Shown here: positions 3,785 through 29,327 of the stretch, one piece after another
Layout: the number at the start of each line of letters is the position of its first letter
Position numbering within the stretch: position 1 is the first letter of the stretch
Assembly (NCBI RefSeq): GCF_963676685.1
Contig: NC_092350.1
Coordinates: 73,780,001 to 73,844,000, forward strand
Reading direction: 5' to 3'
DNA length: 64,000 nucleotides
Source: Mytilus edulis
Taxonomy: Eukaryota
Notes under the pieces: generated by a model
What the model was told of the DNA's origin: nothing
The model's database searches: none
Seen by the model: only the letters and a program-made list of their open reading frames with translations
Position numbers and translations under genes: made by a program

Positions 3785-6700
3785 AACATATGATATATTA
3801 AGCTTCTCAATGATCGAAATTAGTTTTTGTCAAAATGCTATATAACCAGTGTAATTTTTCTGAAAAAATGGTTGGCTCAAAGTTTCTGAATTTTTTATAC
3901 TTTTGTCAAATGGTCAAAGTAAATACTTTGTCATAATTTTATGAAAATTAAATGAGCCAAACTAATTTTAGTGAAGGTGTTGGGTACCATGTACTTAAGA
4001 AGTTCTAGATCTCAAATATCGTAAATATGACTGCAATACACCATATTCACAAGACATTTTAAATAAACTATGTTACTTTCCAGTAATGGAATTGATTGGT
4101 GCGACCCTATAGTCCCTAATCATAGATATACATTATACTCCATTTGAAAGTTTATTAAGAGATGAACAAAAGGTATATAGTCGATATGTTCAGCAACGCA
4201 TATTAGAGGAGTAACGAAGGAATTTCACATCGAAATACGCTTGAACATTAAGAAATCATTTATTTTGAATAACGGAATGCACTGCCGCAAGTCGTTAGCC
4301 CCTTATCAAGGCAAAATTAATTCACCAAATTAAAGCTTATTGATAGAAGAATAAATTTAGTTTAAACGATATGTGCCGTAATGACCATTATAGAGGGGTT
4401 ACGGAGGACCTTATTTCAAAAATACGCGTGAAAATAAAGAAATAGCCAATTTTTAATAATGAAATTGATATTTTGAATAATGGAATTGACTGGGGCGACC
4501 CTTAAGCCCCTAATTATAGATATACATTTTACTTCATTCAAAAGCTTATGAAGAGATGAACAATTAAGAAATAGCCAATTTTGATAAACCAAATTGATGT
4601 TTTGAATAGTGGAATGGGCTGGTGCGACCCTTTAGTCTCTAATTATAGACATACATTATACGTCATTCTAAAGTTTATGAAAAGATGAACAAAGGGTATA
4701 TAGTCAATGTGTTCAGCAACGCATATTAGAGGAGTAACGAAGAAACTAAACATCGAAATACGCTTGAACATTAAGAAATAGCTTATTTTGAATAACGGAA
4801 TGGACTACTGCAAGCCGTTTGCCCCAAATCAAGGCAAAATTAATACAACAAATTTAAGCTTATTGATAGAGCAATAAATTGAGTATTAATGATATGTGCT
4901 GTAATGACTATTAGAGTGGTTAAGAAGGACCTAATGTTCAAAATACGCGTGAAAATTTAGAAATAGCCAATCTTGAATTATGAAGTGGATATTTTGAATA
5001 ATCGAATTGACTGGTGCGACCCTTTAGTCCTTAATCAAAGATATACATTATACTCCATTCAAAAGCTTATTAAGAGATGAACAAAAGGTATATAGTTGAT
5101 ATGTTCAGCAACGCATATTAGAGGAGTAACGAAGGAATTAAACATCGAAATACGCTTGCACATTTAGAAATAGCTTATTTTGAATAACGGAATGGACTGC
5201 TGCAAGCCGTTAGCCCTTATCAAGGCAAAATTAATACACCAAATGTAAGGTTATTGATAGAGGAATAAATTAAGTATAAACAATATATGCCGTAATAACC
5301 ATTAGAGGGGTCACGAAAGACCTTATTTTCAAAATACTCGTGAAAATTAAGAAATAGCCAATTTTGAATAACGAAATTGATATTTTGAATAGTGGAATGG
5401 ACTGGTGTGACCCTTTAGTTCCTAATTATAGATATACATTATACTTCATTCAAAAGCTTATGAAGAGATGAACAAAAGATATATAGTCGATATGTTCAGC
5501 AACGCATATTAGAGTAGTAACGAAGGAATTAAACATTGAAATACGCTTGAACATTAAGACATACATGTAGCTTATTTTGAATAAATTAAAGCTTATTGAT
5601 CAACGAATAAATTGAGTATTAATGATATGTGCCGTAATGACCGTTTAAGTGGTTAGGAAGGTGCCGTAATAACCATTAGAGGGGTTACGGAGGACCTTAT
5701 TTCAAAAATACGCTTGAAAATAAAGAAATAGCCAATTTTAAATAACGAAATTGATATTTTGAATAATGGATTTGACTGGGGTGACCCTTTAGTCCCTAAT
5801 CATAGATATACATTATACTCCATTCAAAAGCTTTTTAAGAGATTAACAAAAGGTGTATAGTCGATATGTTTAGCAACGCATATTAGAGGAGTACCGAAGG
5901 AATTAAACATCGAAATACGTTTGAACATTCAGTAATAGCTTATTTTGAATAACGGAATGGACTGCTGCAAGCCGTTAGCCCTTATCAAGAAAAATTAATA
6001 CACCAACTTAAAGGTTATTGTTAGAGGAATAAATTTAGTATAAGCGATGTATGCCATAATAACCATTAGAGGGGTTACAGAGGACCTTATTTCAAAAATA
6101 CGCGATAAAATTAAGAAATGGCCAATTTTGAATAACGAAATGGATATTTTGAATAGTGGAATGGACTGGTGCGACCCTTTAGTCCCTAATTATAGATATA
6201 CATTATACTTCATTCAAAAGCTTACGATGAGATAAACAAAAGTTGTATAGTCGATATGTTCAGCAACGCATATTACAGAAGTTAGGAAGGAATTAAACAT
6301 CGAAATACGCTTGAACATTAAGAAATTGCTTATTTTGAATAACGGAATGGACTGCTGGAAGCCGTTAGCCCTTATCAAGGCAAAATAAATACAACAAATT
6401 AAAGCTTATTGATAGAGGAATAAATTTAGTTTAAACAATATGTGCCGTAATAACCATTAGAGAGCTTACGGAGGACCTTATTTCCAAAATACGCGTGAAA
6501 ATTAAGAAATAGCCAATTTTGAATTACGAAATTGATATTTTGAATAGTGGAATGGACTAGTGCGACCCTTAAGTCCCTAACTATAGATATACATTATACT
6601 TCATTCAAAAGCTTACAAAGAGATGAACAAAGGGTATATAGTCAATATGTTCAGCAACGCATATTAGAGGAGTAACGAAGGAATTAAACATCGAAATACG

Positions 6701-9700
6701 CTTGAACATTAAGAAATAGCTTATTTTGAATAACGGAATGCACTGCCTCAAGCCGTTAGCCCCTAAGCAAGGCAAAATAAATACAACACATTTAAGCTTA
6801 TTGATAAAGGAATAAATTGAGTATTAATGATATGTCCCGTAATGACAATTAGATAGGTTACGAAGGACATAATGTCCAAAACACGCGTGAAAATTTAAAA
6901 ATAGCCAATCTTGAATTATGAAATAGATATTTTGAATAAGGGAATTGACTGGTGCGACCCTTTAGTCCCTGATCATAGCTATACATTATACTCCTTTCGA
7001 AAGCTTATTAAAAGATGAACAAAAGGTATATAGTCGATATGTTCAGCAACGCATATTACAGAAGTAACGAAGGAATTAAACATCGAAATACGCATGAACA
7101 TTAAGAAATTGCTTATTTTGAATAACGGAATGGACTGCTGGAAGCCGTTAGCCCTTATCAAGGCAAAATTAATACAACAAATTATAGCTTATTGATAGTG
7201 AAATAAATTTAGTTTAAACAATATGTGCCGTAACAACCATTAGAGGGGTTACGGAGGACCTTATTTCCAAAATACGCGTGAAAATGAATAAATAGCCAAT
7301 TTTGAATAACGAAATTGATTATTGAATAGTTGAATGGACTGGTGCGACCCTTTAGTCCCTAATTATAGATATACATTATACCTCATTCAAAAGCTTATGA
7401 AGAGATGAACAAAAGGTATATAGTCGATATGTTCAGCAACGCATATTAGTGGAGTAAGAAGAAATTTAAAAACATCGAAATACGACTTGAACATTAAGAA
7501 ATAGCTTATTTTGAATAGCATTATGGACTGATGCAAGCCGTTAACCCCTAATCAAGGCAAAATTAATACAACAAATTCAAGCTTATTGAAAGAGGAATAA
7601 ATTGAGTATTAATGATATGTGCCGTAATGACCATTAGAGTGGTTAGGAAGGATCTAATGTCCAAAATACGCGTGAAAATTTAGAAATAGCCAATCTTGAA
7701 TTATGAAATGGATATTTTGAATAATGGAATTGACTGGTACGATCCTTTAGTCCCTAATCATAGATATACATTATACTTCATTCGAAAGCTTATTAAGAGA
7801 TGAACAAAAGGTATATAGTCGATATGTTCAGCAACGCATATTAGAGGAGTAACGAAGGAATTAAATATCGAAATACGCTTGAACATTGAGAAATAGCTTA
7901 TTTTGAACAACGGAATGGACTGTTACAAGCCGTTAGCCCTTATCAAGGCAAAATTAATAAACCAAATTAAAGATTATTGATAGAGGAATAAATTTAATTT
8001 AAACAATATGTGCCGTAATAACCATTAGAGAGCTTACGGAGGACCTTATTTTCAAAATACGCGTGAAAATTAAGAAATAGCCAATTTTGAATAACGAAAT
8101 TGATATTTTGAATAGTGCAATGGACTAGTGCGACCCTTAAGTCCCTAACTATAGATATACATTATACTTCATTCAAAAGCTTACAAAGAGATGAACAAAG
8201 GGTATATAGTCAATATGTTCAGCAACGCATATTAGAGGAGTAACGAAGGAATTAAACATCGAAATACGCTTCAACATTAAGAAATAGCTTATTTTGAATA
8301 ACGGAATGCACTGCTGCAAGCCGTTAGCCCCTAATCAAGGCAAAATAAATACAACACATTTAAGCTTATTGATAAAGGAATAAATTGAGTATTAATGATA
8401 TGTCCCGTAATGACAATTAGATAGGTTACGAAGGACCTAATGTCCAAAACACGCGTGAAAATTTAAAAATAGCCAATCTTGAATTATGAAATAGATATTT
8501 TGTATAAGGGAATTGACTGGTGCGACCCTTTAGTCCCTAATTATAGCTATACATTATACTCCTTTCGAAAGCTTATTAAAAGATGAACAAAAGGTATATA
8601 GTCGATATGTTCAGCAACGCATATTACAGAAGTAACGAAGGAATTAAACATCGAAATACGCATGAACATTAAGAAATTGCTTATTTTGAATAACGGAATG
8701 GACTGCTGGAAGCCGTTAGCCCTTATCAAGGCAAAATTAATACAACAAATTATAGCTTATTGATAGTGAAATAAATTTAGTTTAAACAATATGTGCCGTA
8801 ACAACCATTAGAGGGGTTACGGAGGACCTTATTTCCAAAATACGCGTGAAAATTAAGAAACAGCCAATTTTGAATAACGAAATTGATTATTGAATAGTGG
8901 AATGGACTGGTGCGACCCTTTAGTCCCTAATTATAGATATACATTATACCTCATTCAAAAGCTTATGAAGAGATGAACAAAAGGTATATAGTCGATATGT
9001 TCAGCAACGCATATTAGTGGAGTAAGAAGAAATTTAAAAACATCGAAATACGACTTGAACATTAAGAAATAGCTTATTTTGAATAGCATTATGGACTGAT
9101 GCAAGCCGTAAACCCCTAATCAAGGCAAAATTAATACAACAAATTCAAGCTTATTGAAAGAGGAATAAATTGAGTATTAATGATATGTGCCGTAATGACC
9201 ATTAGAGTGGTTAGGAAGGATCTAATGTCCAAAATACGCGTGAAAATTTAGAAATAGCCAATCTTGAATTATGAAATGGATATTTTGAATAATGGAATTG
9301 ACTGGTACGATCCTTTAGTCCCTAATCATAGATATACATTATACTTCATTCGAAAGCTTATTAAGAGATGAACAAAAGGTATATAGTCGATATGTTCAGC
9401 AACGCATATTAGAGGAGTAACGAAGGAATTAAATATCGAAATACGCTTGAACATTGAGAAATAGCTTATTTTGAACAACGGAATGGACTGTTACAAGCCG
9501 TTAGCCCTTATCAAGGCAAAATTAATAAACCAAATTAAAGATTATTGATAGAGGAATAAATTTAATTTAAACAATATGTGCCGTAATAACCATTAGAGGG
9601 GTTACGGAGGACCTTATTTCCAAAATACGCGTGAAAATTAAGAAATAGCCAATTTTGAATAACGAAATTGATATTTTGAATAGTGCAATGGACTAGTGCG

Positions 9701-10609
9701 ACCCTTAAGTCCCTAACTATAGATATACATTATACTTCATTCAAAAGCTTACAAAGAGATGAACAAAGGGTATATAGTCAATATGTTCAGCAACGCATAT
9801 TAGAGTAGTAACGAAGGAATTAAACATCGAAATACGTTTGAACATTAAGAAATAGCTTATTTTGAATAACGGAAAGCACTGCTGCAAGCCGTTAGCCCCT
9901 AATCAAGGCAAAATAAATACAACACATTTAAGCTTATTGATAAAGGAATAAATTGAGTATTAATGATATGTCCCGTAATGACAATTAGATAGGTTACGAA
10001 GGACCTAATGTCCAAAACACGCGTGAAAATTTAGAATTAGCCAATCTTGAATTATGAAATAGATATTTTGAATAAGGGAATTGACTGGTGCGACCCTTTA
10101 GTCCCTAATAATACCTATACATTATACTCCTTTCGAAAGCTTATTAAAAGATGAACAAAATGTATATAGTCGATATGTTCAGCAACGCATATTACAGAAG
10201 TAACGAAGGAATTAAACATCGAAATACGCATGAACATTCAGAAATTGCTTATTTTGAATAACGGAATGGACTGCTGGAAGCCGTTAGCCCTTATCAAGGC
10301 AAAATTAATACAACAAATTAAAGCTTATTGATAGAGGAATAAATTTAGTTTAAACAATATGTGCCGTAATAACCATTAGAGGGGTTACGGAGGACCTTAT
10401 TTCCAAAATACGCGTGAAAATTAAGAAATAGCCAATTTTGAATAACGAAATTAATTATTGAATAGTTGAATGGACTGGTGCGACCCTTTAGTCCCTAATT
10501 ATAGATATACATTATACCTCATTCAAAAGCTTATGAAGAAATGAACAAAAGATATATAGACGATATGTTCAGCAACGCATATTAGTGGAGTAAGAAGGAA
10601 TTTAAAAAC

Positions 10610-10792
10610 NNNNNNNNNNNNNNNNNNNNNNNNNNNNNNNNNNNNNNNNNNNNNNNNNNNNNNNNNNNNNNNNNNNNNNNNNNNNNNNNNNNNNNNNNNN
10701 NNNNNNNNNNNNNNNNNNNNNNNNNNNNNNNNNNNNNNNNNNNNNNNNNNNNNNNNNNNNNNNNNNNNNNNNNNNNNNNNNNNNNNNNNNNN
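10610..10792. other. Assembly gap (183 N)
   Basis: Run of N. Confidence 1.
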
Positions 10793-11770
10793 ACTCATTT
10801 GGATTACACCAATTTTCAATAAGGCTCTCTTAATACAATAATAATTACATAACAAATAAACAATGCATCAATAAAAATGGTAAATAAAGATTATGTACAA
10901 TTTAAAATACAATAAACAATTATGATATGGCATTACAGTAAAAATATGATGGTAATGTTAAAAGTACATAGATTTGTATATATGTTTAAATTCTGATACT
11001 GTATTTGATTTTTTTTATTGAATTAGGAAGAGCATTCCACACTTTTGGTCCATTGTACGAGAAACTAGACTTATACAACTCTGTATTTAGTTTTGGAATA
11101 ATAAAATTATCTGAGGATGAAAATCTCGTATTATTTTTTTGGTTTGCAGAAGCTGATACAATAAGACTGGACATATATTCTGGAGCTAAGCCATGTTTTG
11201 CCTTATACATTAGTAATGATTTGTGATAAAGTATTCTTTGTGTGATTGGCACAATGTTACATTCGTGAAATAATTCTCTTGAAGGTTTGGTGTAATCATG
11301 TTCGTCTAAAATTATTCTTGCTGCCCTTTTTTGCAGTTTTAGTAAACTATCTAATAGAAAGTTATTACAGGTTCCCCATATTGAACAACAATAATCTAAG
11401 TGAGGTAAAACGTAAGCGTTATAGTACATTTGTCTAGCTTTATGATTTAAATATTTCTTTATCCTTTTTAGTAAAGCTAAAGAAGAGTTAACTTTTTTGA
11501 TTATATAATCGATATGAGATGACCAAGATAGAGATGCATCAATAAAAACACCTAGAACTTTTTCACAGGTACTTTCTATAATTTGTTGTCCATTTAAAGC
11601 AATATTGATGTTTTCATTTGATGTAACGGAAAGCTTTTGTTTAGATCCAATGCATATAGCTTTCGTTTTAGATACATTTACAGCCATTTTATTGTCATCA
11701 CACCAGCGAAAAATATCTTGTTAAACCGTATTAAGTTTTTGACTGATGCAACTTTTCTTTTGTCCAATGA
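10793..11770 (-). mobile_element. 5'-truncated CR1/L2-group LINE (C-terminal RT region plus 3' UTR) inserted in the satellite
   Basis: ORF 10986-11687 has KTK..I, KVLGVFID..LSW..HI, PHLDYC..IWG, LQKRAARII and SFSY.GP..WN.LP. The satellite monomer broken before the gap resumes at ~11770. Confidence 0.9.
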
Positions 11771-14144
11771 CATTAAGAAATAGCTTATTTTGAATAGCAT
11801 TATGAACTGATGCAAGCCGTTAATCCCTAATCAAGGCAAAATTAATACAACAAATTCAAGCTTATTGAAAGAGGAATAAATTGAGTATTAATGATATATG
11901 CCGTAATGACCATTAGAGTGGTTAGGAAGGATCTAATGTCCAAAATACGCGTGAAAATTTAGAAATAGCCAATCTTGAATTATGAAATGGATATTTTGAA
12001 TAATGGAATTGACTGGTGCGATCCTTTAGTCCCTAATCATAGATATACATTATACTTCATTCGAAAGCTTATTAAGAGATGAACAAAAGGTATATAGTCG
12101 ATATGTTCAGCAACGCATATTAGAGGAGTAACGAAGGAATTAGATATCGAAATACGCTTGAACATTGAGAAATAGCTTATTTTGAACAACGGAATGGACT
12201 GTTACAAGCCGTTAGCCCTTATCAAGGCAAAATTAATAAACCAAATTAAAGATTATTGATAGAGGAATACATTTAATTTAAACAATATGTGCCATAATAA
12301 CCAGTAGAGGGGTTACGGAGGACCTTATTTCCAAAATACGCGTGAAAATTAAGAAATAGCCAATTTTGAATAACGAAATTGATATTTTGAATAGTGGAAT
12401 GGACTGGTGCGACCCTTAAGTCCCTTACTATGGATATACATTATACTACATTCAAAAGCTTATGAAGAGATAAACAAAAGGTATATAATCGATATGTTCA
12501 GCAACGCATATTAGATGAGTAACAAAGGAACTAAACATCGAAATTCGCTTGAACATTAAGAAATAGCTTATTTTGAATAACGGAATGGACTGCTGCAAGC
12601 CGTTAGCCCCTTATTTATGCAAAATTAATAACCAAATTAAAGCTTATTGATAAAGGAAAAAATTGAGTATTATTGATATGTGCCGTAATGACCATTAAAG
12701 TGGTGAGGAAGGACCTAATGTCCAAAATACGCATGATAGAGGAATAAACGGAGTATAAACGATATGTGCGACAATGACCATAAAGAAAATCAAGAAATAG
12801 CCAATTATGTATATGAAATGGATATTGATTTATAGCATGGACTGCTGCCACTATTTAGCCTCTAATTATAGATATGCCTTATAGCTCATTCGCAAGCTTA
12901 TTAAGAGAGGGAAAAAAATATAAAGTCGATATGTTCTGCAACACATATTAGAGGAATAACGAAGGATCTTAACATCGAAATTCGCTTGAACATTAAGAAA
13001 TAGCTTATTTTGAATAATGAAATGGACTGCTGCAAGCCCTCAGTCTTTATTAAGGCAACATGTATAGAGGAATAGAGTGACTTTAAATATATGTTCAGCA
13101 ATGCATATTAGAGGAGTAACGAAGGAATTAATCATCGAAATACCCTTGAACATTAAGAAATAGCTTATTTTGAATAACGGAATGGACAGAAAACCTGTCA
13201 GATAGAAAGATAGCTGTTTCGTCGATGTATTTCCACACCACCTATTATTCAGATTTTTAAAAGATATAAATATGCTAAAAGGGCATGTGTGTCAGAAGTC
13301 ACCTTAAAACAAATGTCTTAATATTAAAAGAAATAAGAAATGCATCTATTTGCTTTAATTATATTATAATTGTGCAAATCAGAAGATCTTTCTATCATGT
13401 CTATATAGCATGTTTTTGAATGATATTTCCCAGTTCAAAGTGTTTTATTAAAACCATAATTATATTTAACACCGAAACAAAATTTTAATTCCAAATTAAT
13501 ACTCGGATACAAACACTTTGGTTTGTTTTGAGACTAAGAAATGAGCGGGAAATGTAACTGTAAGCTATACATTATAAATCATCATGTGTTAACCCAACTA
13601 ACATGTTTATTTAGATAGTGTCGAAAAATGTTGCGACAGAAGCGGGAAATATAACTGTAAGCAATTATACATAACATGCTGATTACGCATTTCTCACGGA
13701 TATTTGATACAGGGAAGGTCGTTGTTTTATCATCTCAACCACAAGTACACATTCCATCGTCTAGTTTCCGCTGCAATTTATAATTAATCGACAGTGCTCG
13801 ACATCATTCTTAAGTATTTTACGTCACCGATAAAGGATTAGATATAAAAAAAAAAATCAAAAAATTATTAAATAAATATGATACTTTAAATCTTTTTCAT
13901 TAATGATATGATACTTTAAGTCTTTTTTCTAACTATTTTAACACATCGACCATCTTTTCATTTTTAAAAGAAACCATGTATATTGAAAAAAAGAATATGT
14001 TAGTTTGTTCCAGGGTGTTTATATCCTTCGATTTGGAAAACAAATGTTTGTTCCAAGCAAATATAACTATGCCCCCTTGAAAAGATGAATATTGGGGCTA
14101 AAAAATATTTAGTTTTTTATTTAGAAATTTTTTTTTATTATTTC

Positions 14145-17100
14145 ATGATTCAAAATAAGCTATTTTATAATTTTCACCCGTATTTTGATTTTTAGGTACT
14201 TCATAACTCCTCTAATATGCGTTGCGGAACATATTTACTATATACCTTTTGTTCATCTTTTAATAGGCTTTCGAATGAGGTAAAATGTATATTTGTATTT
14301 AGGGGCTGAAGTGTTGCAGCAATCCAATCCATTATTCAAATTATCCATTCAATTGTTCAAAATTGGCTATTTCTTAATTTTCACGCGTATTTTGGCATTT
14401 TGGTCCTATGTAACCGTGTGGGTTTTCTATCAATAGCTTTCACATGGAGTTTTTAAAGTTTTCCTAATTTAGGAACTGAGTCATTGCCTCTAAATAAAGT
14501 TGTTATTACTGACCAGTCACAGCAGTTCATTCTTTTATTAAAAAGAACTATGTCTTAATGTTTATATAAAAAAAGATGTGGTATGATTTCCAATGAGATA
14601 ACGGTCCATAAGAGATTTAAATGACACAGAATACGCATTATGTATATTTCGACATGTTAGATCCTTCGTTTCTCCTCTAATATGCGTTGCGGAACATACT
14701 AACTACATATATTTTGTTCTTCTATTGATAGGCTTTCGAATGAGGTATCATGTAAATATGTAATTATGGGTTGAAGGGTCACAGCAATCCATTGCATCAT
14801 TCAAAATTGGCTATTTCTTAATCTTCACGGTTATTTTAATTTGTGCTCCGTAATCTCGAGCTCCCTAATGGTCATTGCGGCACATATTATTTATAACCTA
14901 AACCATTTTGTTTCTCGGTCAATGGACTTTCAAATGGTTATAACGTTTTCCTTAATTAGGGGCTGACGTTCTCAGCAGTCCATTTCATTATTTAAAATAA
15001 GCTACATTTTTATTTCTTAATATTTACATGTACATTGTATTTCGATTTTTAGATCCTTCGTTACTCTCCGCGTTGCGTAGTATATACGATTTGTTCCTCT
15101 ATGATTAAGCTTTCGAATGAGCTTGAAGGTATTTCTGTAATTATAAGGCTGAAGGGTCACAGCAGTTCATGTCATTATTTCAAAATATTCATTCCGTTAT
15201 TCAAAATTGGCAATTTCTTTCTTTTCACGCATTTAAGTCATCCATTACCTCTCTGTCATTGAGGGACATATTATTTATACATTTTATTTCTCTATCAATT
15301 AGCTTTCACATGGTGTATAAAGTTTTCCTTCATAAGGGGCTTACGGGTCGCATCAGTCCATTCCATTATTCAGAGTAAGCTATTAATAAAGCCATAATGT
15401 TCACCCGTATTTCGATTTTTAGGTCCTTCATTACTCCTCTGATATACGCTACATTTGGTGACCTTCGGCTGTTGTGTTTTCTATGGTCGGGTTGTTTGAC
15501 ACATTCCCAATTTTATTGCAGATCATATTGACAAAATATCTTTTGTTCCTCTTGTAATAGGCTTTCAAATGAGATATAAAGTCATATGTAATTAGGGCTG
15601 AAGGTTCACATCAGTCCATTACATTATTAAAAATATCCATTCCAGTTTTCAAAATTGTTTATTTCTTAATTTTCACGCGTATTTTTGTATTTAGCTCCTC
15701 CGTTACACATCTAATTGTCATTGGGGCACATATTAGCTATAAACATTTTGTTCCTCTATTTATAACCTGGCAAATGGTGTATAAAGTTTCCCTTAAGTAG
15801 GAGCTTACGGGTTGCAGGAGTTAATTTCATGATTGAAAAAAAGCTATTTTATAATGTTCACCCGTATTTCGATTTTTAGGTACTTCATTTCTCCTCCAAT
15901 ATGCGTTGCGGAACATATTAACTATATACCTTTTGTTCCTCTATAATTAAGCTTTCGAATGAGGTTAAGGGTATTTCTGTAATTAGGGGCTGAAGGGTAA
16001 CAGTAGCTCATGTCATTATTTCAAAATATTCATTCCATTATTCAAAATTGGCAATTTCTTTCTTTTCACTCATTTAAGTCCTCCGTTACCTCTCTTATGG
16101 TCATTGAATGACGTATTACTAATACATTTTGTTTCTCTATCAATAAGCTTTCACGTAGTGTATAAAGTTTTCTTTTATAAGGGGCTGACAAGTCGCATCA
16201 GTCCATTCCATTATTCAGAGTAAGCTATTAATAAAACCATATAATGTTCACCCGTATTTCGATTTTTTAGGTCCTTCATTACTCCTCTGATATACGCTAC
16301 ATTGAAAACCTGTTGGTGACCTTCGGCTGTTGTGTTTTCTATGGTCGGGTTGTTTGACACATTCCCCATTTCCATTCTCAATTTTATTACAGATCATATT
16401 GACTAAATATATGTTGTTCCTCTTGTAGTAGGCTTTAATGAGATTTTAAAGTCATATGGAGTTAGGTCTGACGGTTCACATCAGTCCATTACAGTATTAA
16501 AAATATCCATTTCAATTTTTCAAAATTGTCTATTACTTAATATTTAGGTCCTCCATAACCCTTTTAATTGTCATTAGGGCAGTCCCCGCACATATATATT
16601 ATCTATAAACATTTTGTTCCTCTATTTATAACCTTGCAAATGGTGTATAAAGTTTTCCTTAATTATAGGGGCTTATGGGTTGCAGAAGTTCATTTCATGA
16701 TTTAAAATAAGCTATTTTATAATGTTCACCCGTATTTCGATTTTTTAAAGGTAGTTCTTTACTCCTCCAATATGCGTTGCGGAACATATTAACTATATAC
16801 CTTCTGTTACTCTTTTAATAGGCTTTCGAATGAGGTAAAATGTTTATTTGTAATTAGGATCTGAACTATCGAAGCAATCCATTCCATTATTAAAAATTGG
16901 CTTTTTTTATTTTCACGCGTATTTTGGCATTTTGGTCCCCTGTAACCCTATTAAAACGTCATTGTGGTTTCTCTATCAATAAACTGTCTCATTGTCTATA
17001 AAGTTTTCCCTAATTAGGGCATGAGTTACTGCCTCTGAATAACGATACTATTACTGACGAGTCGTAGCAGTTCATTATATTATTAAAAAAGCTATTTCAT

Positions 17101-19475: not shown

Positions 19476-20199
19476 GTCTTTGACTAGCAATACTTTGAAC
19501 CACTGACAACGGTCTCTTTAACGATCCCATGCTCAAAAATGACAAAACTAAAGAACAAAGTATATTGTCCCTGCTAGCCTGAATAGTGTAGGTTTCAGCT
19601 CGAGAGTTCCCACTAAAGGCATTTGTTTTTTTAGATAAAAAGATTTGTGATACCCAGTCTACAAAATCAAACAAAAGTTCAAAATCTGACTCTCGTCTGT
19701 ACTAATTGTTTCATTGGCAATTATACTACATTTTCTCATTATTATGTTGCTGCATAAATGTCTTTAAGGATGAAACTTCTGTTGGTGGTTACGGTTCGGA
19801 GATGGGCTATTCTGCCCTTGTCAGATTTCTCATACAAGTGTTTATATATTAGTATTCTAGTTAGAAGAAAAGAGCTTGCAGTTATCCGCTATCTCAAGAA
19901 GTTACACATTTGCATTAAATAACATGCGATGAAATAAACACTTGAAATTAGTGAAATTCTAAAGATGTCGTAGACATGTTGATTTATTAATCAGTCTGGG
20001 AATTCATGGCAAGCCATAACTCTACAATGTTATGGTAACCCATAACCTTTCAATTTTTTGAGATACCTCTACATTATCCTCTTTCATTTTAGTATGGTTA
20101 CGTTCTCATTATCACTTTCGGTATATTCCGGATCGCTAATCGTTCCCTCACCGATGTCGGTATTTTGTTAACAATTCACATCCGGGTCACTGTGTAAAA

Positions 20200-22457
20200 A
20201 TGGACGAACAACAACCATCGACATCGCATTCAAGGGGTATGTAAATTAGCCGACTACGGCAATATTATATGTTACACCTGAATGAACCTGCATGTAGTGG
20301 TACCTAAATGATTAATTTACATTTTACAATACTCAAACACGCAATTACGCTTTTATTTAAACAAATTACGCTTTTCCAAACTCGTCCAAAACATGGAATA
20401 TACACGTACGTTATGGTTAACCCTAACTTTATTCACCTGAATGGTTACGGTTTACCATAACTAAAGAAAGGTTACGGATATCCGTAACTTAAATGGGGAG
20501 CAGTTGTTTATTTTATTAAACAAGCTGAACGGATAATTGATATCGAGGTAAAATGAAAAAAGGGGGGTTGTAAACATGTAAATATACACGAAATAAAGCG
20601 CATGTTAAATATGCATGGTATTTAGAAGAGTAAATTTTCAAAGAAATATTGGAGAGCAGTTTAAAAAATATTATATTTACACAAGGATTTTTATAGTTGG
20701 TTTACATCAACATGATCAACAATGTATAAGCAGCAGTATTTCTGGCCTGTTAAAGTTTTATACTATATTTGTGAAGTCATACATGTATCTTACATGTTTT
20801 GAAAAAAAAACATAAAATGTTGATCAACCTTACCAACATTCAGACACACAATTATAGCGCTTTTATTTAAAGAATTTACTCTTTTCCAAACTCACTCAAA
20901 AAATAAAATATTCATAAGAGTTGTGGTTAATGTAATAATTCAGAATATTCATTTGTTTAAAATTGTTCCACTTCCAATGCTTCGAAACAGAAACAGTATT
21001 ACAAGCTGTCAGTCTGTCTGTCCATCCTGTCTCGTTTGAACTTATATAAGGTGCACTCTATAATGTGTGAAGCATGCATATTACAAGTTAACCTTGTATG
21101 AAATATTATGCATCATGAGAAATACAATGCATGCATGTCAACTTCATGACATAGTTTGCCTATATGCTGCCTGTATACATAGCTATTCATGACAGTTGTC
21201 AATTACAGATCGTTGAATTTGCAAAATGTACATGTACGTAGTATTCATTTATCCATTAGCACTTAAATATTGATAAAAGGCCTAAATTAAAATATTGTTT
21301 GTTTCCCTAATCCAGACCGACCCTACACAAATGGTACTACTCATGAAATTTTATTGTCAAAACTAAGTCAAATATTATTTTATTCGTTTTGGATTTTAAG
21401 GCTTTCCAGATCGTCCGATTAAGTTCAAGCTTTTTGGAAAATAAAATTATTTACCTACCTACCTATCCACACCTGGCTTGGCAAGGTTGGGATTGGGGAA
21501 ACAAACAATCTATTAATTTAGGCCAAACCAAGTCAATTGAGCTTTGAGGAAATCTCACAATGGTAAAAAACAAAAGCACCAATTTCACAGCTGCATAATA
21601 TCTTTTTAATTATTCAGTTCATTTTTATTACATACTAGTTTATTGTACATGTTGTAGCTTTGAAACAAACATACATATGAAAATAAATAGATATAAAGTT
21701 ATTGTGCACGAGATAAAATCACATACAATACATAGAAAAATAAATACAAATTACAAATGAAAAGGGCTTTTTTACCTGTTCTTCATCTTGACAGTTTTCA
21801 GAAGGTCTTTTACAAAGAAAAATCATTCATATATGTAGCCTACAACACGACCAAGACAGCCCCTAGCATATGATTGTTTAATTTTAAGTTCACCATGCTT
21901 TAAAAGTTTTTCTTAATAACATAAAAAGAGTCACATTTCTCTGCATTATGCATATTTACAAGTTATTAGTACATGTACATGCATGAATTATGCACTCATA
22001 TAATTTGTCCCTACCTATGACCTATAACTTTATAGTCACATGTCTTAAATTTTCAGAAGACTTTCCAACAACTGATAAGCATCACATGGAAAAGTTAAAT
22101 GAAATTTGTCGAATATGTGGTAAAGTGATGAAAAAGCCAATTCAAAAGATAAAGTTTGCTGATGAGTTTAAAGGACTTTTTGAAATTGACGTGAAAAAAG
22201 AAGACCCACAAATTTTTCCAGCATATATGTGTGCTATGCATGGTGCTATGTTTTACCGTTTTAGGACTGCATTGCGAAACAATGCACCGTATTCTACTGA
22301 TTTTCTTCCTCCTACTTTTGAAATGCATTCAGACCATTGTCAAGTTTGCAAAAAAACAAGTGTCTTGGATAAAGATGTTACAGAAAGGTCGCGCTGGAAC
22401 CCTCCTGGAAGAGGAAAACGTTGTGCAACATATATACAACCAAACAATTTAGATACG
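20200..22457 (+). pseudogene. Spliced gene for a RAG1 N-terminal (CND/Chapa-like) Zn-binding domain, disrupted by a Penelope insertion; exons 20200-20236 and 22057-22457
   Basis: HMEKLNEICRICG..FEIDVKKEDPQIFPAYMC..FEMHSDHCQVC parallels vertebrate RAG1 H..L..LCRICG..FRIDVK.D...IHP..FC..W.PH...C..C. Phase-1 donor G|GTATGT and acceptor TTTCAG|AA join in frame. Confidence 0.8.
21279..21524. mobile_element. MITE with GGCC termini and 3 bp flanks (Zator/PIF-like)
   Basis: ggcctaaattaa..ttgtttgtttccc at the left and gggaaacaaacaa..ttaatttaggcc at the right; AAA on both sides. Confidence 0.75.
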
Positions 22458-22581
22458 AATGAGATATAACGAGTCCAGAACCAATCCTATATATACCAAT
22501 ACATATTCTTAGTATTTGACTTTATTTCATAATCTATTTTGTTCAATTCAATATTTTATCATAAATATTTGTTGTTTTTTA

Positions 22582-22729
22582 AGGTGTTTCGGTTAAGGTT
22601 TAACTACCAAGGCTTTTCCTCATCAGGTATCCCAAGCCTCTAACTAATAAAATAATCAGTTTCAAAGTAAAGTTCAAAGCATCCATACGCATAGAATTTA
22701 AAAATTCTGCATACCGGGATACGACACCT
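22582..22729 (-). ncRNA. Type III hammerhead ribozyme, copy 1
   Basis: AGGUGUC^GUAUCCC...GGGAUAC CUGAUGA G...C GAAACACCU: 7 bp stem I, 6 bp stem III, intact core and GUC triplet. Confidence 0.85.
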
Positions 22730-22831
22730 GGTAACTTTGTATTGATGTATTGTATTCTAAATTAAATCAGTTTATGATTTGATATAACTATTGTCTTTTA
22801 TGTTGTGATTTATCCTATAACTTGGTTTATC

Positions 22832-24139
22832 CTATAACTTGGAGGATGTAAGTAGATCCTTCAAGTTTTTGTTTCTTTTATATGCTATGATCGGAGGTTT
22901 TGGAAACATGGTTTTTGTGATATCATTTTGTTCAATTAGGTGCCAATGTTTTTTAATTGCTTTATTTAGTCCATTGAAGGAAGGATTAAATTTGGTGGCT
23001 AAAACTAATGGAGGCATTGCTCTTGTGTTTTTAAGCTTGTACCTTAGACAATCTTTTCTTTCCTTATGAAGTGCATTTGTTATAATGGGGTTGATATCTT
23101 TTTCCGAGTATCCCCTTTGGAGAAGTTTTGTTTTAAAAGTTTCAATTTCTTTTAGTGTATCTTTTTTGTTATTTGATGATCTCATAAAACGCAATATTTC
23201 CGCAGTAATAAATCCATTGAACACCGATGATGGGTGAGCTGACGTTCGTTCAAGATACTGAAAGTTATCAGTAGGTTTACGGTATAGTTTTACGTCTAAT
23301 ATATTATGATTAAGGAATCTGTTTCCTTTAAAAATTGTGACGTCAAGGAATTGAATGCTAGATTGTGATATTTCATGCGTAAATTTTATCAACGGGTGTA
23401 TATTATTAGCAATGTTAAATAATTCAGTAAGATTATCTTGACTAGAATTAAAAAGAATGAATCCATCATCTCTGTATATAGATAACAGTGCTAAGTTATC
23501 TTTAAAAGGAAATATATCAAGAATATTCGTTATAATCTCGAACATTCTTAAATCAGCCAGGGATGGGCTCATTGGGGCTCCCATTGGGATTCCACATGTC
23601 TGTCTGAATATCAAGTTATTAAATTCAAATTCATTATTGCATAGAATGAATTGAAGTATTCGTAAGAAGTCCTTTTTTGGTGGTAGAGGTATTTCATGTT
23701 TATTACGACATATTTTGTACCATGCTCTGTCAACTGCTTGCAGTATTTCATCGTGAGTTAAGGAATTGTACATACTAGTAATATCAAAAGTGCACATAAT
23801 TATGTCATCCGGTGCCCTTATTTGTTCTATTTTGTTGATAAATGAGGTCGTGTCTTGTGTATAAGTCCATAATTGGCTAACTACCGGTTTTAGGAAGTGG
23901 TCTATAAATTGACCAATTTTTTCAATTGGACTATTGCATAATGATACAATTGGTCTCCCAGGAATATCTATATTTTTAAGGAAATCTTTGTTAGTTTTGA
24001 TTTTTTCTCTATCTTCATGGTTAATTTTGTGAATTTTTGGCAACATATAGAGTCGTCCCACTCGTATATTGGCATTATTGGCTAGGTATTTATATGTTAT
24101 ATCGTCGATATATTCTTTCTTGTGTAGTTGTTTGATCAT
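22832..24139 (-). CDS. PLE reverse transcriptase (frame open back to ~24245); no C-terminal GIY-YIG
   Basis: LYMLPKIHK, GRPIVS, FDITSMY, Q..GIPMG, YRDDGF, FLDV, YRKPT..YL..S.HP, AYKRNKNLKDLL then stop. Confidence 0.9.
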   Translation of the reverse strand: MIKQLHKKEYIDDITYKYLANNANIRVGRLYMLPKIHKINHEDREKIKTNKDFLKNIDIPGRPIVSLCNSPIEKIGQFIDHFLKPVVSQLWTYTQDTTSFINKIEQIRAPDDIIMCTFDITSMYNSLTHDEILQAVDRAWYKICRNKHEIPLPPKKDFLRILQFILCNNEFEFNNLIFRQTCGIPMGAPMSPSLADLRMFEIITNILDIFPFKDNLALLSIYRDDGFILFNSSQDNLTELFNIANNIHPLIKFTHEISQSSIQFLDVTIFKGNRFLNHNILDVKLYRKPTDNFQYLERTSAHPSSVFNGFITAEILRFMRSSNNKKDTLKEIETFKTKLLQRGYSEKDINPIITNALHKERKDCLRYKLKNTRAMPPLVLATKFNPSFNGLNKAIKKHWHLIEQNDITKTMFPKPPIIAYKRNKNLKDLLTSSKL

Positions 24140-24369
24140 TTTTTGAATAGTTTCGGATATTTTGTTCGTATTAAATTCATGAATTTGCTCATAGCATATA
24201 CTGTTGTTCAGGAAATTCAGTGTTTGTTTAATATATAGATTTTTAAATGAGATATAACGAGTCCAGAACCAATCCTATATATACCAATACATATTCTTAG
24301 TATTTGACTTTATTTCATAATCTATTTTGTTCAATTCAATATTTTATCATAAATATTTGTTGTTTTTTA

Positions 24370-24517
24370 AGGTGTTTCGGTTAAGGTTTAACTACCAAGG
24401 CTTTTCCTCATCAGGTATCCCAAGCCTCTAACTAATAAAATAATCAGTTTCAAAGTAAAGTTCAAAGCATCCATACGCATAGAATTTAAAAATTCTGCAT
24501 ACCGGGATACGACACCT
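24370..24517 (-). ncRNA. Type III hammerhead ribozyme, copy 2
   Basis: Same motif in the second direct repeat. Confidence 0.85.
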
Positions 24518-24955
24518 GGTAACTTTGTATTGATGTATTGTATTCTAAATTAAATCAGTTTATGATTTGATATAACTATTGTCTTTTATGTTGTGATTTA
24601 TCCTATAACTTGGTTTATCCTATAACTTGGAGGATGTAAGTAGATCCTTCAAGTTTTTGTTTCTTTTATATGCTATGATCGGAGGTTTTGGAAACATGGT
24701 TTTTGTGATATCATTTTGTTCAATTAGGTGCCAATGTTTTTTAATTGCTTTATTTAGTCCATTGAAGGAAGGATTAAATTTGGTGGCTAAAACTAATGGA
24801 GGCATTGCTCTTGTGTTTTTAAGCTTGTACCTTAGACAATCTTTTCTTTCCTTATGAAGACATATTGTTTTACTGCCAAACACCTCTTATCATTAATATT
24901 ATTTAAATATCATGATAATTGTGTCCATAAAGTAATTATCAAATCAATTTAATTA

Positions 24956-25018
24956 AAACACATGTTTTGTGTGTCCAAGCTTTGTTTACAAGTATCTGAA
25001 ACCAATTACTGTCCGTTT
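24956..25018 (+). pseudogene. Possible decayed RING-finger remnant of the RAG1-N-like gene
   Basis: Translates KHMFCVSKLCLQVSETNYCPF, resembling RAG1 KHVFC..C...C......YCP.C; lies just beyond the PLE insertion; flanked by stops. Confidence 0.4.
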
Positions 25019-25240
25019 TCCTCGTGGTGTGTCTTATCAAAATGCAGCTTGAACAGTTTGTAAGCTCTGAAGTCTCAATGACTGATGTATTATAACCAGA
25101 ACAAAAAGTAAAACAAAGAGCTCTGAGTTTCTGTGTGATAGAATACATTATAATTTGAATTCAAAGTGGTTCATTTGCACTCATACCACGGATACATCTA
25201 CTTGTAAATATAAAAATGATCTGTATTTTAAAAATTGTAG

Positions 25241-26276
25241 GTGCAGATCTGTTTGACATGAGAGATATAGGAGAAGAGGAAAACGAGTTGGATTCTGACA
25301 GAGGTAGCTATTTCTTAAAGACATATTTTTAAAAATAGGGAAGATTACATTTCAAAATGATTGTTTACATTTTTTTTTCAAATAAATATATACATTTCGA
25401 TGAACATGATGAATGAAACAAACGATTTCTATTAATCCTCATCTTTATGATCATTAAATCTCTGATTATAAAACATTTGCACATGTTCAAGACTGTTCAT
25501 AGCTTTATAGGAAATAACATCAATTGACATGATTGATCGTTTTAACCTTATTTACATAATACATTTATTTATTTGTAGATTCAGAGGAGAGTATGGTTTA
25601 CATTGCTACTCCATGTACACCTCAATCCAGCAAAGCCCCATCACCCAGAAAAAGAAAGAGGGGACAGTATTTAAGAAAAGAAAGCGGGACAAGTTCACAG
25701 AAGGAAAAAAGGGAAGCCAACAGAATTAAAGGGATTCACCACAGGAGGAGGAATGCAATATATAAAGAATTGCTTCATTTAAAAATGGACACCCAGTGGG
25801 AGGGGATAGTAATTCTAAGGTCCAAAGATAAAACAAAAATAGTTTGTGGGGGAACAGATACAGAGCTCGAAGAACGGTTTTTCCAGCAGGAAGTTCTTGT
25901 TGACAATTTGGACAAAATCAAAAAAAAAGATATGCACAAAATTGACATGTCTAGTGTTATGCTCAAACTGTCTTCAGTTGGTAAAAGGATGGAATCAGTT
26001 CTTGAATCTCCTGATCCATCGCCATCAAAGGTTCCAGAGATTGCAAGGGATATGCTACCAGGGCCATCCCAAAAAAAAGATCTGGAATCCATTCCATTGA
26101 AAAAATCTGATGGTGTCAGTGATTACCAGTCGATTTTGACTGGTTTCACTAAGAAGAAGAGCAACATATGCCTCTTCAAATCTGATAAAGGAGGAGAAGC
26201 TTCCGAGGAACAGTCAGGAAAAGGAAAAGGCAAAGGAAAGGGAAAAGGAAAGGGCAAAAAATCAAAGAAGGACTAA
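25241..26276 (+). CDS. Transposon accessory gene of unknown function (acidic patch, basic region, (GK)n tail); exons 25241-25303 and 25579-26276, first exon probably 20200-20236
   Basis: 227 aa ORF preceded by TTGTAG acceptors at 25240 and 25578 and donor G|GTAGCT at 25303; all phase 1 and in frame (GADLFDM..DSDR-DSEESMVYI). Confidence 0.7.
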
Positions 26277-27643
26277 GTAACTTCTTTTAAATATCAATTG
26301 GTAACATCCGGTGCTAGTTCTTTGATTTAGGTTCCCTGGATTTCATTCACAAAAATGGGGGGATACTAAGTTTTTTAGACTTTACCTCAAAAATGTTTTA
26401 GGAATATTCATACAATCTCCTTTTTGATTTTAAATAAAAATCCATGTTGTTATTACAATTTAGAACTTTTAAGTGTTAACCAAAATATTCACATAGTGTT
26501 ATTCACTTTAGAATGCCTAAAATTATTTCCATTTAAACTTAAAAAATGTAAAATCATGTTTATATTCCGATTTTGTCGTTGTTGTTTTTTTCTCATATGT
26601 TGTTTCAGAGTACAGGTTATACCATTCTGAAATAAGACAATTTTGTTAATACTTGTTTTGGGCAATAACTCTAGTATGTCTTTACTTTTCAGTTCTTTTG
26701 CCAGCTTCATTCTGTTGAGCATTTTATTATATTTTGACTCTAGATTCATTTCTCAGGAGCCACTTTTGATTCATATACTACCTTCATTTAAACAGTCTTA
26801 TTGCTGTAGTAAATAAGCAGTTTGAATAAAATTGCAGGCGTATTGTGTCTATAGTAAGTCTTTTAAACATTGTAAATATGAAATATGCAGCATGTCTTTG
26901 TTTTTGTATTTTTGTTATGATCAGATATGTTTCATGGTTTAAAATATAGACAGAATAATTCCAAGACTTGGTTTCAAGGCAATATTGATTAATCTCTGTA
27001 ATTTTGTATTGAACAATGTTGAATACTGTCAGTATAATATAAGGTTGTGTTGAATATGCTAGTCATTTTTTTAGTATTTACAAAGTCATGTTTTATCACG
27101 TCATTATACTTCAAAAAGTAAGACCATTTGTAAAAGGTTTTTTTTTTTATTTTTGTTATGATTATATAGGTTTTTTAGGTGAAACTATATGTAAAGTACA
27201 TGTAAAATACAAATACATTAATACATGTATTTGCAGAATGTTATAGGCAATGATAGTAACAGTCTGACACTCTATTCCAAGGCAATATTGAATTTTTTAT
27301 TTTATTTTTTATGAATATACAATATTTTTGTTATGAAATTTCAATTTTCTCAAACATTTACAAAGTTTTGTTTAAATGTGTCATCATGATTCACCCAATA
27401 ATGCTCTTTGTAACCACATACATGTTTTTGCCAAATTTAAAAGGCAGTTTTGATATTATGTTCATCTTTTTCAATTTGTTATAAATATACCTCATTGTCT
27501 ATATTTTTTATAAACATTTACAAAGTTATGTTTTTTAACTTGTTATTTTTATGTACGGGTATATCAATCATTGTTAATTACCATAATTATTGTTAAAACT
27601 TTTGAATACATGATATTTTTAATAAATTCATACTGATCAACAT

Positions 27644-29019
27644 TTATGCATATAGTCTTTGTTGTAAGTCTTCATGAGTCACACATTCTTCAATAATGTG
27701 CATGGCATGTTCAAAATATTCCTTCTTTATCTGAATAACATAGTGGCATTTTAAATCTGCTCCCCCTCCTGGTTGGTCATGTCTTTCGTTGCCTCTTCTG
27801 CGTCTAAATTGCTGGTGAGAGAGTGGTCTTGTTGACACAGTTGCTTCCCCAGTGTATCTACATGTTATATTTTCAACATAACCCCTTGTTGTCAACAGAT
27901 GGAAGGCCTTACACAGATTTGCTGGTACTCTCCCTACTTGTTTACCTGAATAATAATATAAATCAGATATAAATAATATGAATATTTGTTTTACATGAAA
28001 TTAGAATCATGAATTGTCTATATTCAATTTTCACAAAAGTGATGTTAGTACAATAGCTATTCAAATATGTTAGGAAGCATTAAGTTTAAGAGCTACGTGT
28101 CGAAATCATTGTTATGATCATTAGGCATCTATACTGGTCTTTTTAAAACGTTGCACTTCTATGGAAATAAAGATAATGACGAATAATTGTTTAACAACCA
28201 GTAGCAGGTCAGGTGCTTATTAAGGATTAGAACATGATAATGAGAAATAAGAAACCCTACTTTTGTACTAGCACTTGGACAGATTTTTAACAGTTTGCAG
28301 GAACAAATTATTTTGGATCCAGGCCAACTAGTCTTTGCTTTTACTCATTAAAGCTCAATGTCATGTGCTTGGCCATGTTGGCAGAGAAGCAGCAAATAAT
28401 TTTCAAGTCTGTGGTTGGTACCTTTGTCTTATGCCACTTGATATTTGATAACATAGATATAGGAAGATGTGGTGTGAGTGCCAATGAGACAACTCTCCAT
28501 CCAAATAACAATTTAAAAAGTACACCATTATAGGTTAAAGTACGGCCTTCAACACAGAGCCTTGGCTCACACCGAACAACAAGCTATAAAGGGCCCCAAT
28601 ATTACTAGTGTAAAACCATTCAAACGGGAAAACCAACGGTCTAATGCACCCTAACAATTTCACCACAGAGGGTTTTGGCAGTCTTTTGTTGTGTCAAGTC
28701 GTTCAAACAAAATAAAATTTTAACCTCACTAAGCAGGAAAACTTTACTCACCTGCTATGTGTCGCACTCTTTGTGGTGGATTACCATCTTTTGTTACAGT
28801 ATCATGAAGATGCTGAGGGATGTGCTGCAGTGCTGGAACTGACACCTTCATTGCATGAGGATCATATGGATTGTTAACCTCCAATTCAACATTCAATGGA
28901 ATCTCAACATGTGGCCGCAAACGAAAAACATGATAGCCTTTTATACTCCAATCAAATTTTATAGGTCTAACATTCATATTTTGTCTAACGATTGTGTTGT
29001 ATTCTGAACTGGATGCCAT
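27644..29019 (-). CDS. Intact two-exon HIRAN-like domain protein, 189 aa (exons 29019-28752 and 27945-27644)
   Basis: G|GTGAGT donor and TTCAG|G acceptor join IKGYHVF..LEVNNPYDPHAMKV to KQVGRVP..GGGADLKCHY, the E..N.YD..A..V / VG.VP HIRAN signature. Confidence 0.8.
28460..28645 (-). mobile_element. SINE-like 3' fragment (family B) in the HIRAN gene intron
   Basis: aagatgtggt..gccaatgagacaactctcca is the reverse complement of copies at 29870-29915 and 30225-30260. Confidence 0.6.
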
Positions 29020-29327
29020 GATCAAGAAGATACAAAATATAGCATTTTGCTTATGGTATGGACTACCAAAACCTTTTGATGACTTGAGGTTATGGTAAAC
29101 CCTAACTAGAAAGGTAATGGATGCCCATAACCTTATCAAGAGAAATGAAAAATAATTTCTCCCTCCCTCAAAATGCACAGTTATGGATATCCATAACTAT
29201 GAAGGTTATGGGTTACCATAACATTGTAGAGTTATGGCTTGCCATGAATTCCCAGACTGTTAATTGATTAGGATAAGATATCTTGGTTTTCAGTTGATTG
29301 CATCCGTGTCGTTCTCTCACAAGTACA

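Follow-up and report, generated by a model that had tools for sequence, protein, structure and literature searches.

The DNA analysed here, a stretch of 64,000 nucleotides from Mytilus edulis (contig NC_092350.1; hereafter, the window), carries a complete type III hammerhead on its minus strand, which is a genuine feature and very probably an active ribozyme. The motif is the 3'-UTR ribozyme of a two-ORF Penelope-like element (PLE) that possesses no endonuclease. On balance, we favor the reading that in vivo cleavage by this hammerhead, which sits in the 3' UTR and pseudo-long terminal repeat (pseudo-LTR) of the element, generates the 5' end of the RNA on which the reverse transcriptase (RT) works. 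The features on which the analysis draws, numbered from the first base of the window, are as follows.

22582..22729, minus strand: type III hammerhead, downstream copy; predicted cut at 22723/22722; conserved in sister families with covariation
24370..24517, minus strand: type III hammerhead, upstream copy, identical; predicted cut at 24511/24510
22609..22640, minus strand: pseudoknot strands, GAGGCUU in loop I (22640-22634, at its 3' end) and AAGCCUU in loop II (22615-22609); adding 1788 gives the positions of the second copy
22597..22608, minus strand: small loop II hairpin, GGU...ACC; GGUC/GACC, GAUC/GAUC or GGC/GCC in sister families
22458..23071, minus strand: downstream pseudo-LTR, comprising the end of the RT ORF and the 3' UTR; 22458 is the fixed 3' end of the family
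24246..24859, minus strand: upstream pseudo-LTR, an exact 614-bp copy, attributed to a second, shorter cDNA
22832..24245, minus strand: 5'-truncated RT ORF (ORF2) with 470 intact codons and no GIY-YIG domain; first in-frame ATG at 24139
22458..22722, minus strand: the 265 nt between the cut and the fixed 3' end, a segment that occurs alone at many loci
21987..22457, plus strand: host sequence, the start of a RAG1-like N-terminal zinc-finger ORF, of which a 99%-identical locus has an intact version of 1041 aa; here, 4,041 bp of host DNA are replaced

Read along the minus strand, the motif has three helices, with stem III (AGGUGU/ACACCU) open and loops on stems I and II, an arrangement that is supported by covariation. 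C17 of the GUC cleavage site falls at 22723 and 24511. Stem I (GUAUCCC/GGGAUAC) has 7 bp, or 9 bp if two G-U pairs are counted, and carries an 82-nt loop I with a hairpin inside; the core CUGAUGA is found at 22626-22620, GAAA is also present, and stem II is a mere 2 bp (GG/CC) below a 25-nt loop II. The consensus CUGANGA / GAAA / NUH, including the A15.1-U16.1 and G10.1-C11.1 pairs, is matched throughout. AGGCUU in loop I (22639-22634) pairs with AAGCCU in loop II (22615-22610), giving 7 bp with a flanking G-U, and this pseudoknot likely replaces the usual loop-loop contact and supports the 2-bp stem II. The complete core with its two GUC sites, the minimal stem II, the loop I of about 80 nt with its hairpin, and the complementarity of AGGCUU and AAGCCU had all been proposed in a preliminary description of this DNA, and each is borne out; the hairpin in loop I is not kept in sister families, and the conserved one in loop II is new to the present analysis.

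One might expect a hammerhead to be found by existing models, and the preliminary description had suggested such a search as a check. Rfam returned no hammerhead match at the gathering threshold and none among five weak matches either, probably because the long loop I defeats its hammerhead models. Nested folding places the active fold of the window family 6.3-9.1 kcal above the minimum, with a stem I probability of 0.00, and this probability is below 0.05 in five of eight families. Since nested folding disfavors the active form, the case for a ribozyme rests on comparison.

The core pattern matches the mussel's own genome 263 times, against one match for the reversed control, although this count takes in other repeat families. 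From 100 RT matches, 40 loci were chosen, and one representative was taken for each of 19 families, whose RTs are 36-68% identical where the motif is present. A relaxed hammerhead descriptor, applied to the sense strand up to 600 nt past the RT stop and tuned after these UTRs had been viewed, fits 18 of the 19 family UTRs, none of the 19 antisense sequences and 2 of 760 shuffled UTRs. The exception is family M, represented by a damaged copy, in which a type III motif was read by eye; counting it with the 10 families recognized by the descriptor, 11 families are type III and 8 are type I. The core is invariant across families while the stems covary, with compensated variants in stem I (GUAUCCC/GGGAUAC, CGACUC/GAGUCG, GAGCCC/GGGCUC and GUGCUC/GAGCAC) and in stem III (GGUG/CACC and AGUG/CACU). 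Loop I measures between 30 and 82 nt, with fold energies of -0.2 to -12.9, and no conservation of its hairpin was seen across the sister families. Beyond this genome, a metagenome scan with the RT gave 44 pattern matches, none of which was confirmed, and a scan with the core pattern gave 119 loci, none with RT similarity.

Both topologies keep the pseudoknot, in which the 5' side of loop II pairs with the bases immediately 5' of the pre-core strand of stem I. Examples include GAGGCUU/AAGCCUU (window), AUGGCU/GGCCAU (family K), UUGAGUC/GACUCAG (M), ACGUGG/CCACGU (U), UGACAG/CUGUCA (R) and AUUUAUUGG/CCAAUAAAU (N). In 22 rows, some of them close relatives and with the pseudoknot windows chosen after the sequences had been seen, cognate partners score 13.3 versus 9.9 for swapped partners, and the cognate score is reached by none of 5000 partner swaps and none of 1000 letter shuffles. 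The helix is weak in two of the 22 rows, and in families C and H a helix other than the homologous one scores best. Covariation in homologous elements, on whose presence the preliminary description had staked its reading, is thus found in the stems and in the loop I-loop II contact alike. In a 27-row tree obtained by a careful search (an earlier 68-row tree came from a quick search only), 10 of the 11 type III families cluster (91/88), family L is unplaced, and type I occurs in three lineages. Within the clade, circular permutation has converted one type into the other at least once, in either direction.

Several other hammerheads came to light in the same survey. Loci L106, L109, L111 and L120 carry type I hammerheads with a U3-A8 core variant (UUGAGAA / UUGAAAA) that overlap the end of the RT ORF, while in the type I hammerhead of L103 and L046, which lies in tandem arrays of 2,566-bp units coding for a 657-aa RT, the stem II region spans 137 nt and the 6-bp pseudoknot is perfect. 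Family E (L052-L058, L062, L074, L077-L079) has abundant type I hammerheads of the pseudoknot type, with no RT similarity within 1.5 kb and a sequence related to the L118 family. A repeated CTGACGAG...CGAAAC motif is present at L051, L066 and L073, and in the two copies tested (L051 and L066) no type I or type III stems were found.

The minus-strand ORF encodes an RT (RVT_1) that ends after the thumb region. It is placed among the PLEs by this match, by homologues with a GIY-YIG domain (PF01541) and by an LPKIHK region like that of named PLEs, an assignment made from these features rather than from a tree including named reference PLEs; partial tandems (pseudo-LTRs) and inverted truncated copies, both hallmarks of PLEs, are also present. 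The C-terminal GIY-YIG domain of canonical EN+ elements such as Penelope/Poseidon, Neptune and Nematis is missing, as the window ORF and about 35 homologues stop after the RT thumb; many related proteins of about 645 aa stop at the same place. A DNA search of the own genome gave 82 matches. Longer copies add 185 N-terminal RT residues with a KR-rich block, GLKF and KADKN, and upstream of the RT an ORF1 of about 260-300 aa with an RG-rich tail; no GIY-YIG domain was found in these longer copies. ORF1-like frames precede the RT in several sister families. The natural cut-to-cut unit of the window family (family A) is 4,957 nt, and no intact full-length ORF2 was found in this family among the loci fetched. 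Among named proteins, the nearest come from Mytilus; Saccostrea and Pinctada also have relatives, and the RT clade may already be listed in Repbase.

ORF1 matches no Pfam family above the cut-off. The ORF1 at L042:2488-3309 has 12 homologues, 10 of them named from Mytilus, and its Atlas matches to viral capsid or nucleocapsid clusters score below 0.9 and are weak leads only. Two other identities were considered and dropped: Naiad, as the full-length N-terminus has no N-terminal GIY-YIG, CxC motif or DKA (by the criteria in the accessible part of PMC8557442), and non-LTR retrozymes, as the unit is coding and 5 kb long and its 268-nt tandems have no upstream stem III strand.

In the window, the hammerhead is present twice because it sits in an exact 614-bp direct repeat (22458-23071 = 24246-24859). 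The two hammerheads of the preliminary description are therefore both there, but they are not independent, and we count them as one observation. The copy has lost ORF1 and the 185 N-terminal RT residues, GLKF and KADKN included, and translation from the first in-frame ATG (24139) would give a 435-aa stump. Its empty site is represented by a 99%-identical host locus without the insertion, which has 4,041 bp where the window has a 2,402-bp element. There is no target duplication at the insertion joints; AA and TGAAG are shared at the two joints (microhomologies of 2-5 nt), and these joints together with the loss of 4,041 bp would fit repair-type insertion by a nuclease-less element. The host is itself a duplicated element (window 19992-22457 and 24855-29260, also at L303), and the intact 1041-aa ORF, at G000:C3, has a weak RAG1 importin-binding match and a C2H2 finger; we take it to be possibly RAG1-like or a Chapaev-type transposase.

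Elsewhere in the window, positions 3900-12650 and 14140-16030 hold a satellite array in which units of about 391 bp, inverted copies among them, are arranged in a higher-order structure, and at 25076-25122 a 33-nt back-joint is seen in 35 RNA reads, probably a short tandem repeat or a related locus.

The ends of genomic copies provide the link between the motif and the life of the element. In the window family, 24 of 57 segments with the 3' part begin exactly at the base after the cut (cut+1), among the matches listed and with the best 40 candidates scored; in another search, this is true for 12 of 45 matches listed. One must be careful with such counts, since 14 of the 24 are one junction multiplied by a carrier element. 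The 24 starts have eight distinct upstream 20-mers, three of which are the element's own 3' end, and 6-8 independent junctions at cut+1 are counted. The remaining starts are each unique, save for internal deletions and one duplicated pair. Among the matches listed for other families, 12 of 61 in family D begin at cut+1 with varied partners, as do both internal starts among 43 matches in family K and three of five internal starts among 45 matches in the type I family R, and five more such starts were seen. Near-full-length elements (L041 and L290) also begin at the cut. Copy starts at cut+1 in four families suggest, indirectly, that cleavage takes place in vivo. Pieces with their start at the cut are found fused to other families' 3' ends as well (L031, L045), which points to template jumping.

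The carrier is foldback-like, with long inverted arms of 8-bp (TTTTCGCG-type) repeats; it captured a two-ribozyme piece of the element and spread it to 14 loci on eight contigs (L004, L008, L010-L018, L020, L021, L027). At L031, L045 and L046, different PLE families are chained end to end, sometimes exactly at a cut site.

Could such ends arise with a motif that does not cleave, from a transcription start, a host nuclease or a stalled RT? The lack of an Rfam match, the 2-bp stem II and the competing folds would be in keeping with this, but the same single-base coincidence recurs in four families with different sequences and in both topologies, the core is invariant while the stems covary, and an RT stall would be expected at the 3' side of a helix and not at its 5' end; we give this explanation hardly any credence. 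Very improbable, too, is the proposal of the preliminary description that the 1788 nt between the two cuts are released as a functional, circularizing, RT-encoding RNA in the manner of a retrozyme. The two sites are intact and do not differ, the RT frame is open over 470 codons, the ribozyme would be restored by ligation, and a circular PLE intermediate has been proposed (PMC4209133, in the portion available). Of the 15 genomic segments among the matches listed that extend to the junction at 24245/24246, however, 1 contains it, no RNA read across it was reported among a sparse 28 reads, and the piece is short of ORF1 and the N-terminal RT motifs that the 4,957-nt unit contains. The 1,788-nt piece is a one-off truncated copy and not the natural unit, even though double cutting of a read-through transcript would still set it free.

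A more serious alternative, which we nevertheless think unlikely, is that the ribozyme is active but incidental: full-length copies would be made from uncut linear RNA, and cleavage would trim read-through transcripts or make 265-nt by-products that the RT copies and jumps from. Insertion of the lizard PLE PAc in vitro does not require cleavage, and none of the reads had its end at the cut (PMC11167929). Folding predicts a ground state other than the active fold, 33 of the 57 window-family segments read through the cut or begin elsewhere (among the matches listed), and solo or tandem 265-nt pieces have no upstream stem III strand and cannot re-cleave. RNA reads show no pile-up of ends at the cut, either among the sparse 28 or among 68 reads of family K; family K reads that join opposite strands near the cut, which may come from inverted genomic copies, were not used. 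In family R, seven copies start 5-17 nt before the fixed 3' end; these starts may mark a promoter or transcription start, which therefore leaves room for a linear template. Against an incidental role are the retention of the motif, with covariation, across such divergent RTs and the near-full-length elements that start at the cut.

We thus return to cleavage as the probable source of the 5' end of the copied RNA. A fixed 3' end lies 265 nt downstream of the cut, where 28 segments end; the derivative borne by the carrier accounts for 28 more, with ends 32 nt earlier (both counts among the matches listed). The 5'-unique region is preceded by the element's own 3' end in 20 of 20 family K matches and 3 of 3 family A matches, again among those listed, as internal initiation predicts; such initiation has been shown in vitro for PAc (PMC11167929). 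In the proposed scheme, cleavage of a transcript from a pLTR-ORF1-ORF2-pLTR or tandem locus would yield a unit of about 4,960 nt. With a broken chromosome end as its primer, the RT would initiate internally at the fixed site, copy 265 nt to the cut end, and then either cross the junction (on re-ligated or circular RNA, or at an uncut site) or jump to another RNA. Pseudo-LTRs that start at the cut would be expected to result, along with tandems, chimeras between families and 265-nt pieces standing alone. For the window copy, 1,788 nt would have been copied, followed by a jump, a further 614 nt, and microhomology joining that replaced 4,041 bp of host DNA. Family K also forms identical head-to-tail arrays with a period of 4,262, which fit circles or precise jumps equally well.

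One may go further and imagine an unnamed bivalve clade of two-ORF, endonuclease-less PLEs that replicate via a ribozyme-cut, re-closable circular RNA and insert at DNA breaks, with a hammerhead permuted between types I and III around one retained pseudoknot. Taken as a whole, we consider this picture doubtful. If true, it would be the autonomous, protein-coding counterpart of the retrozymes, and the type III arrangement would keep almost all of the folded ribozyme attached to the 5' end of the unit RNA, with the potential to shield this RNA or to drive cap-independent translation, an effect that cleavage can have (PMC13725137, in its accessible part).

The comparisons that follow draw largely on the accessible portions of the sources named. 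PLE hammerheads as described by Cervera & de la Pena 2014 (PMC4209133) likewise lie in both pseudo-LTRs near the 3' end, with a proposed role in precursor-RNA processing and possibly circles. All of those are type I, minimal and dimeric in animals, and with a long helix III and no recognizable tertiary contact in fungi and protists, and "type III" does not occur in the text available, whereas the window motif is type III, has a long loop I and a pseudoknot, and is predicted to act as a monomer. Other accounts (PMC7761336, PMC6155905, PMC7229834, as far as accessible) place type I in animals and PLEs and type III mostly in plants, and the search in bioRxiv 2026.07.22.740005, in the part at hand, covered type I only. 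The type III topology that the preliminary description called unusual for a PLE is upheld, and the literature surveyed contains no other example, with the variants of Terminon (PMC5850863) and Lunse et al. 2017 (PMC5785218) outside the comparison; nothing on this clade was found in the accessible text of PMC10085705 and PMC10294476. The Mytilus non-LTR retrozymes (PMC7229834) share the host group and a hammerhead in repeats, but they are non-coding tandems of 350-390 bp with type I motifs.

Among the PLEs, Athena, Coprina, PLE-X and MjPLE01 (PMC8557442) similarly have no GIY-YIG, an optional ORF1, partial tandems and inverted truncated copies. The attachment to telomeric repeats of Athena and Coprina is not seen here: the copies are interstitial and dispersed, with non-telomeric 3' flanks at the junctions examined, and DKG reads DKN ("KADKN" does not occur in the available part of the PMC8557442 supplement). 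PAc Poseidon (PMC11167929) likewise has a fixed genomic 3' end, in keeping with internal initiation by the RT downstream of its hammerhead. It differs in possessing an endonuclease, and its hammerhead is protein-assisted; RNA ends were not found at its cut, whereas genomic copy ends of the window family map to the cut.

The nearest relatives of the fold are found in the HDV-like RNAs of toads and termites and in termite and dipteran genomes (PMC7936874, PMC3088659), where helix I is likewise enlarged in a type III topology and loops I and II form a Watson-Crick pseudoknot on GCC/GGC; pseudoknots are common in PMC3088659, and so are 2-bp stems II. The toad/termite-type motifs have a 6-bp stem II and the GGC strand in loop II, whereas in the present clade the strands are swapped and loop I varies; moreover, the termite genomic motifs are isolated, with no ORF nearby, and the window motif belongs to an RT element. 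As pseudoknotted type III hammerheads and 2-bp stems II are already known, the fold itself is not new. What appears to be new is its presence in a dispersed endonuclease-less PLE clade with copies that record the cut site. This animal lineage was overlooked by the Rfam models, and within it one pseudoknotted hammerhead is permuted between type I and type III forms that sort along the RT tree. The in vivo role of PLE hammerheads is called a mystery in reviews (PMC7761336, as accessible); now that genomic copies in four families mark the cut with single-base precision, this question can be put to a direct test on a small motif that is predicted to act as a monomer.
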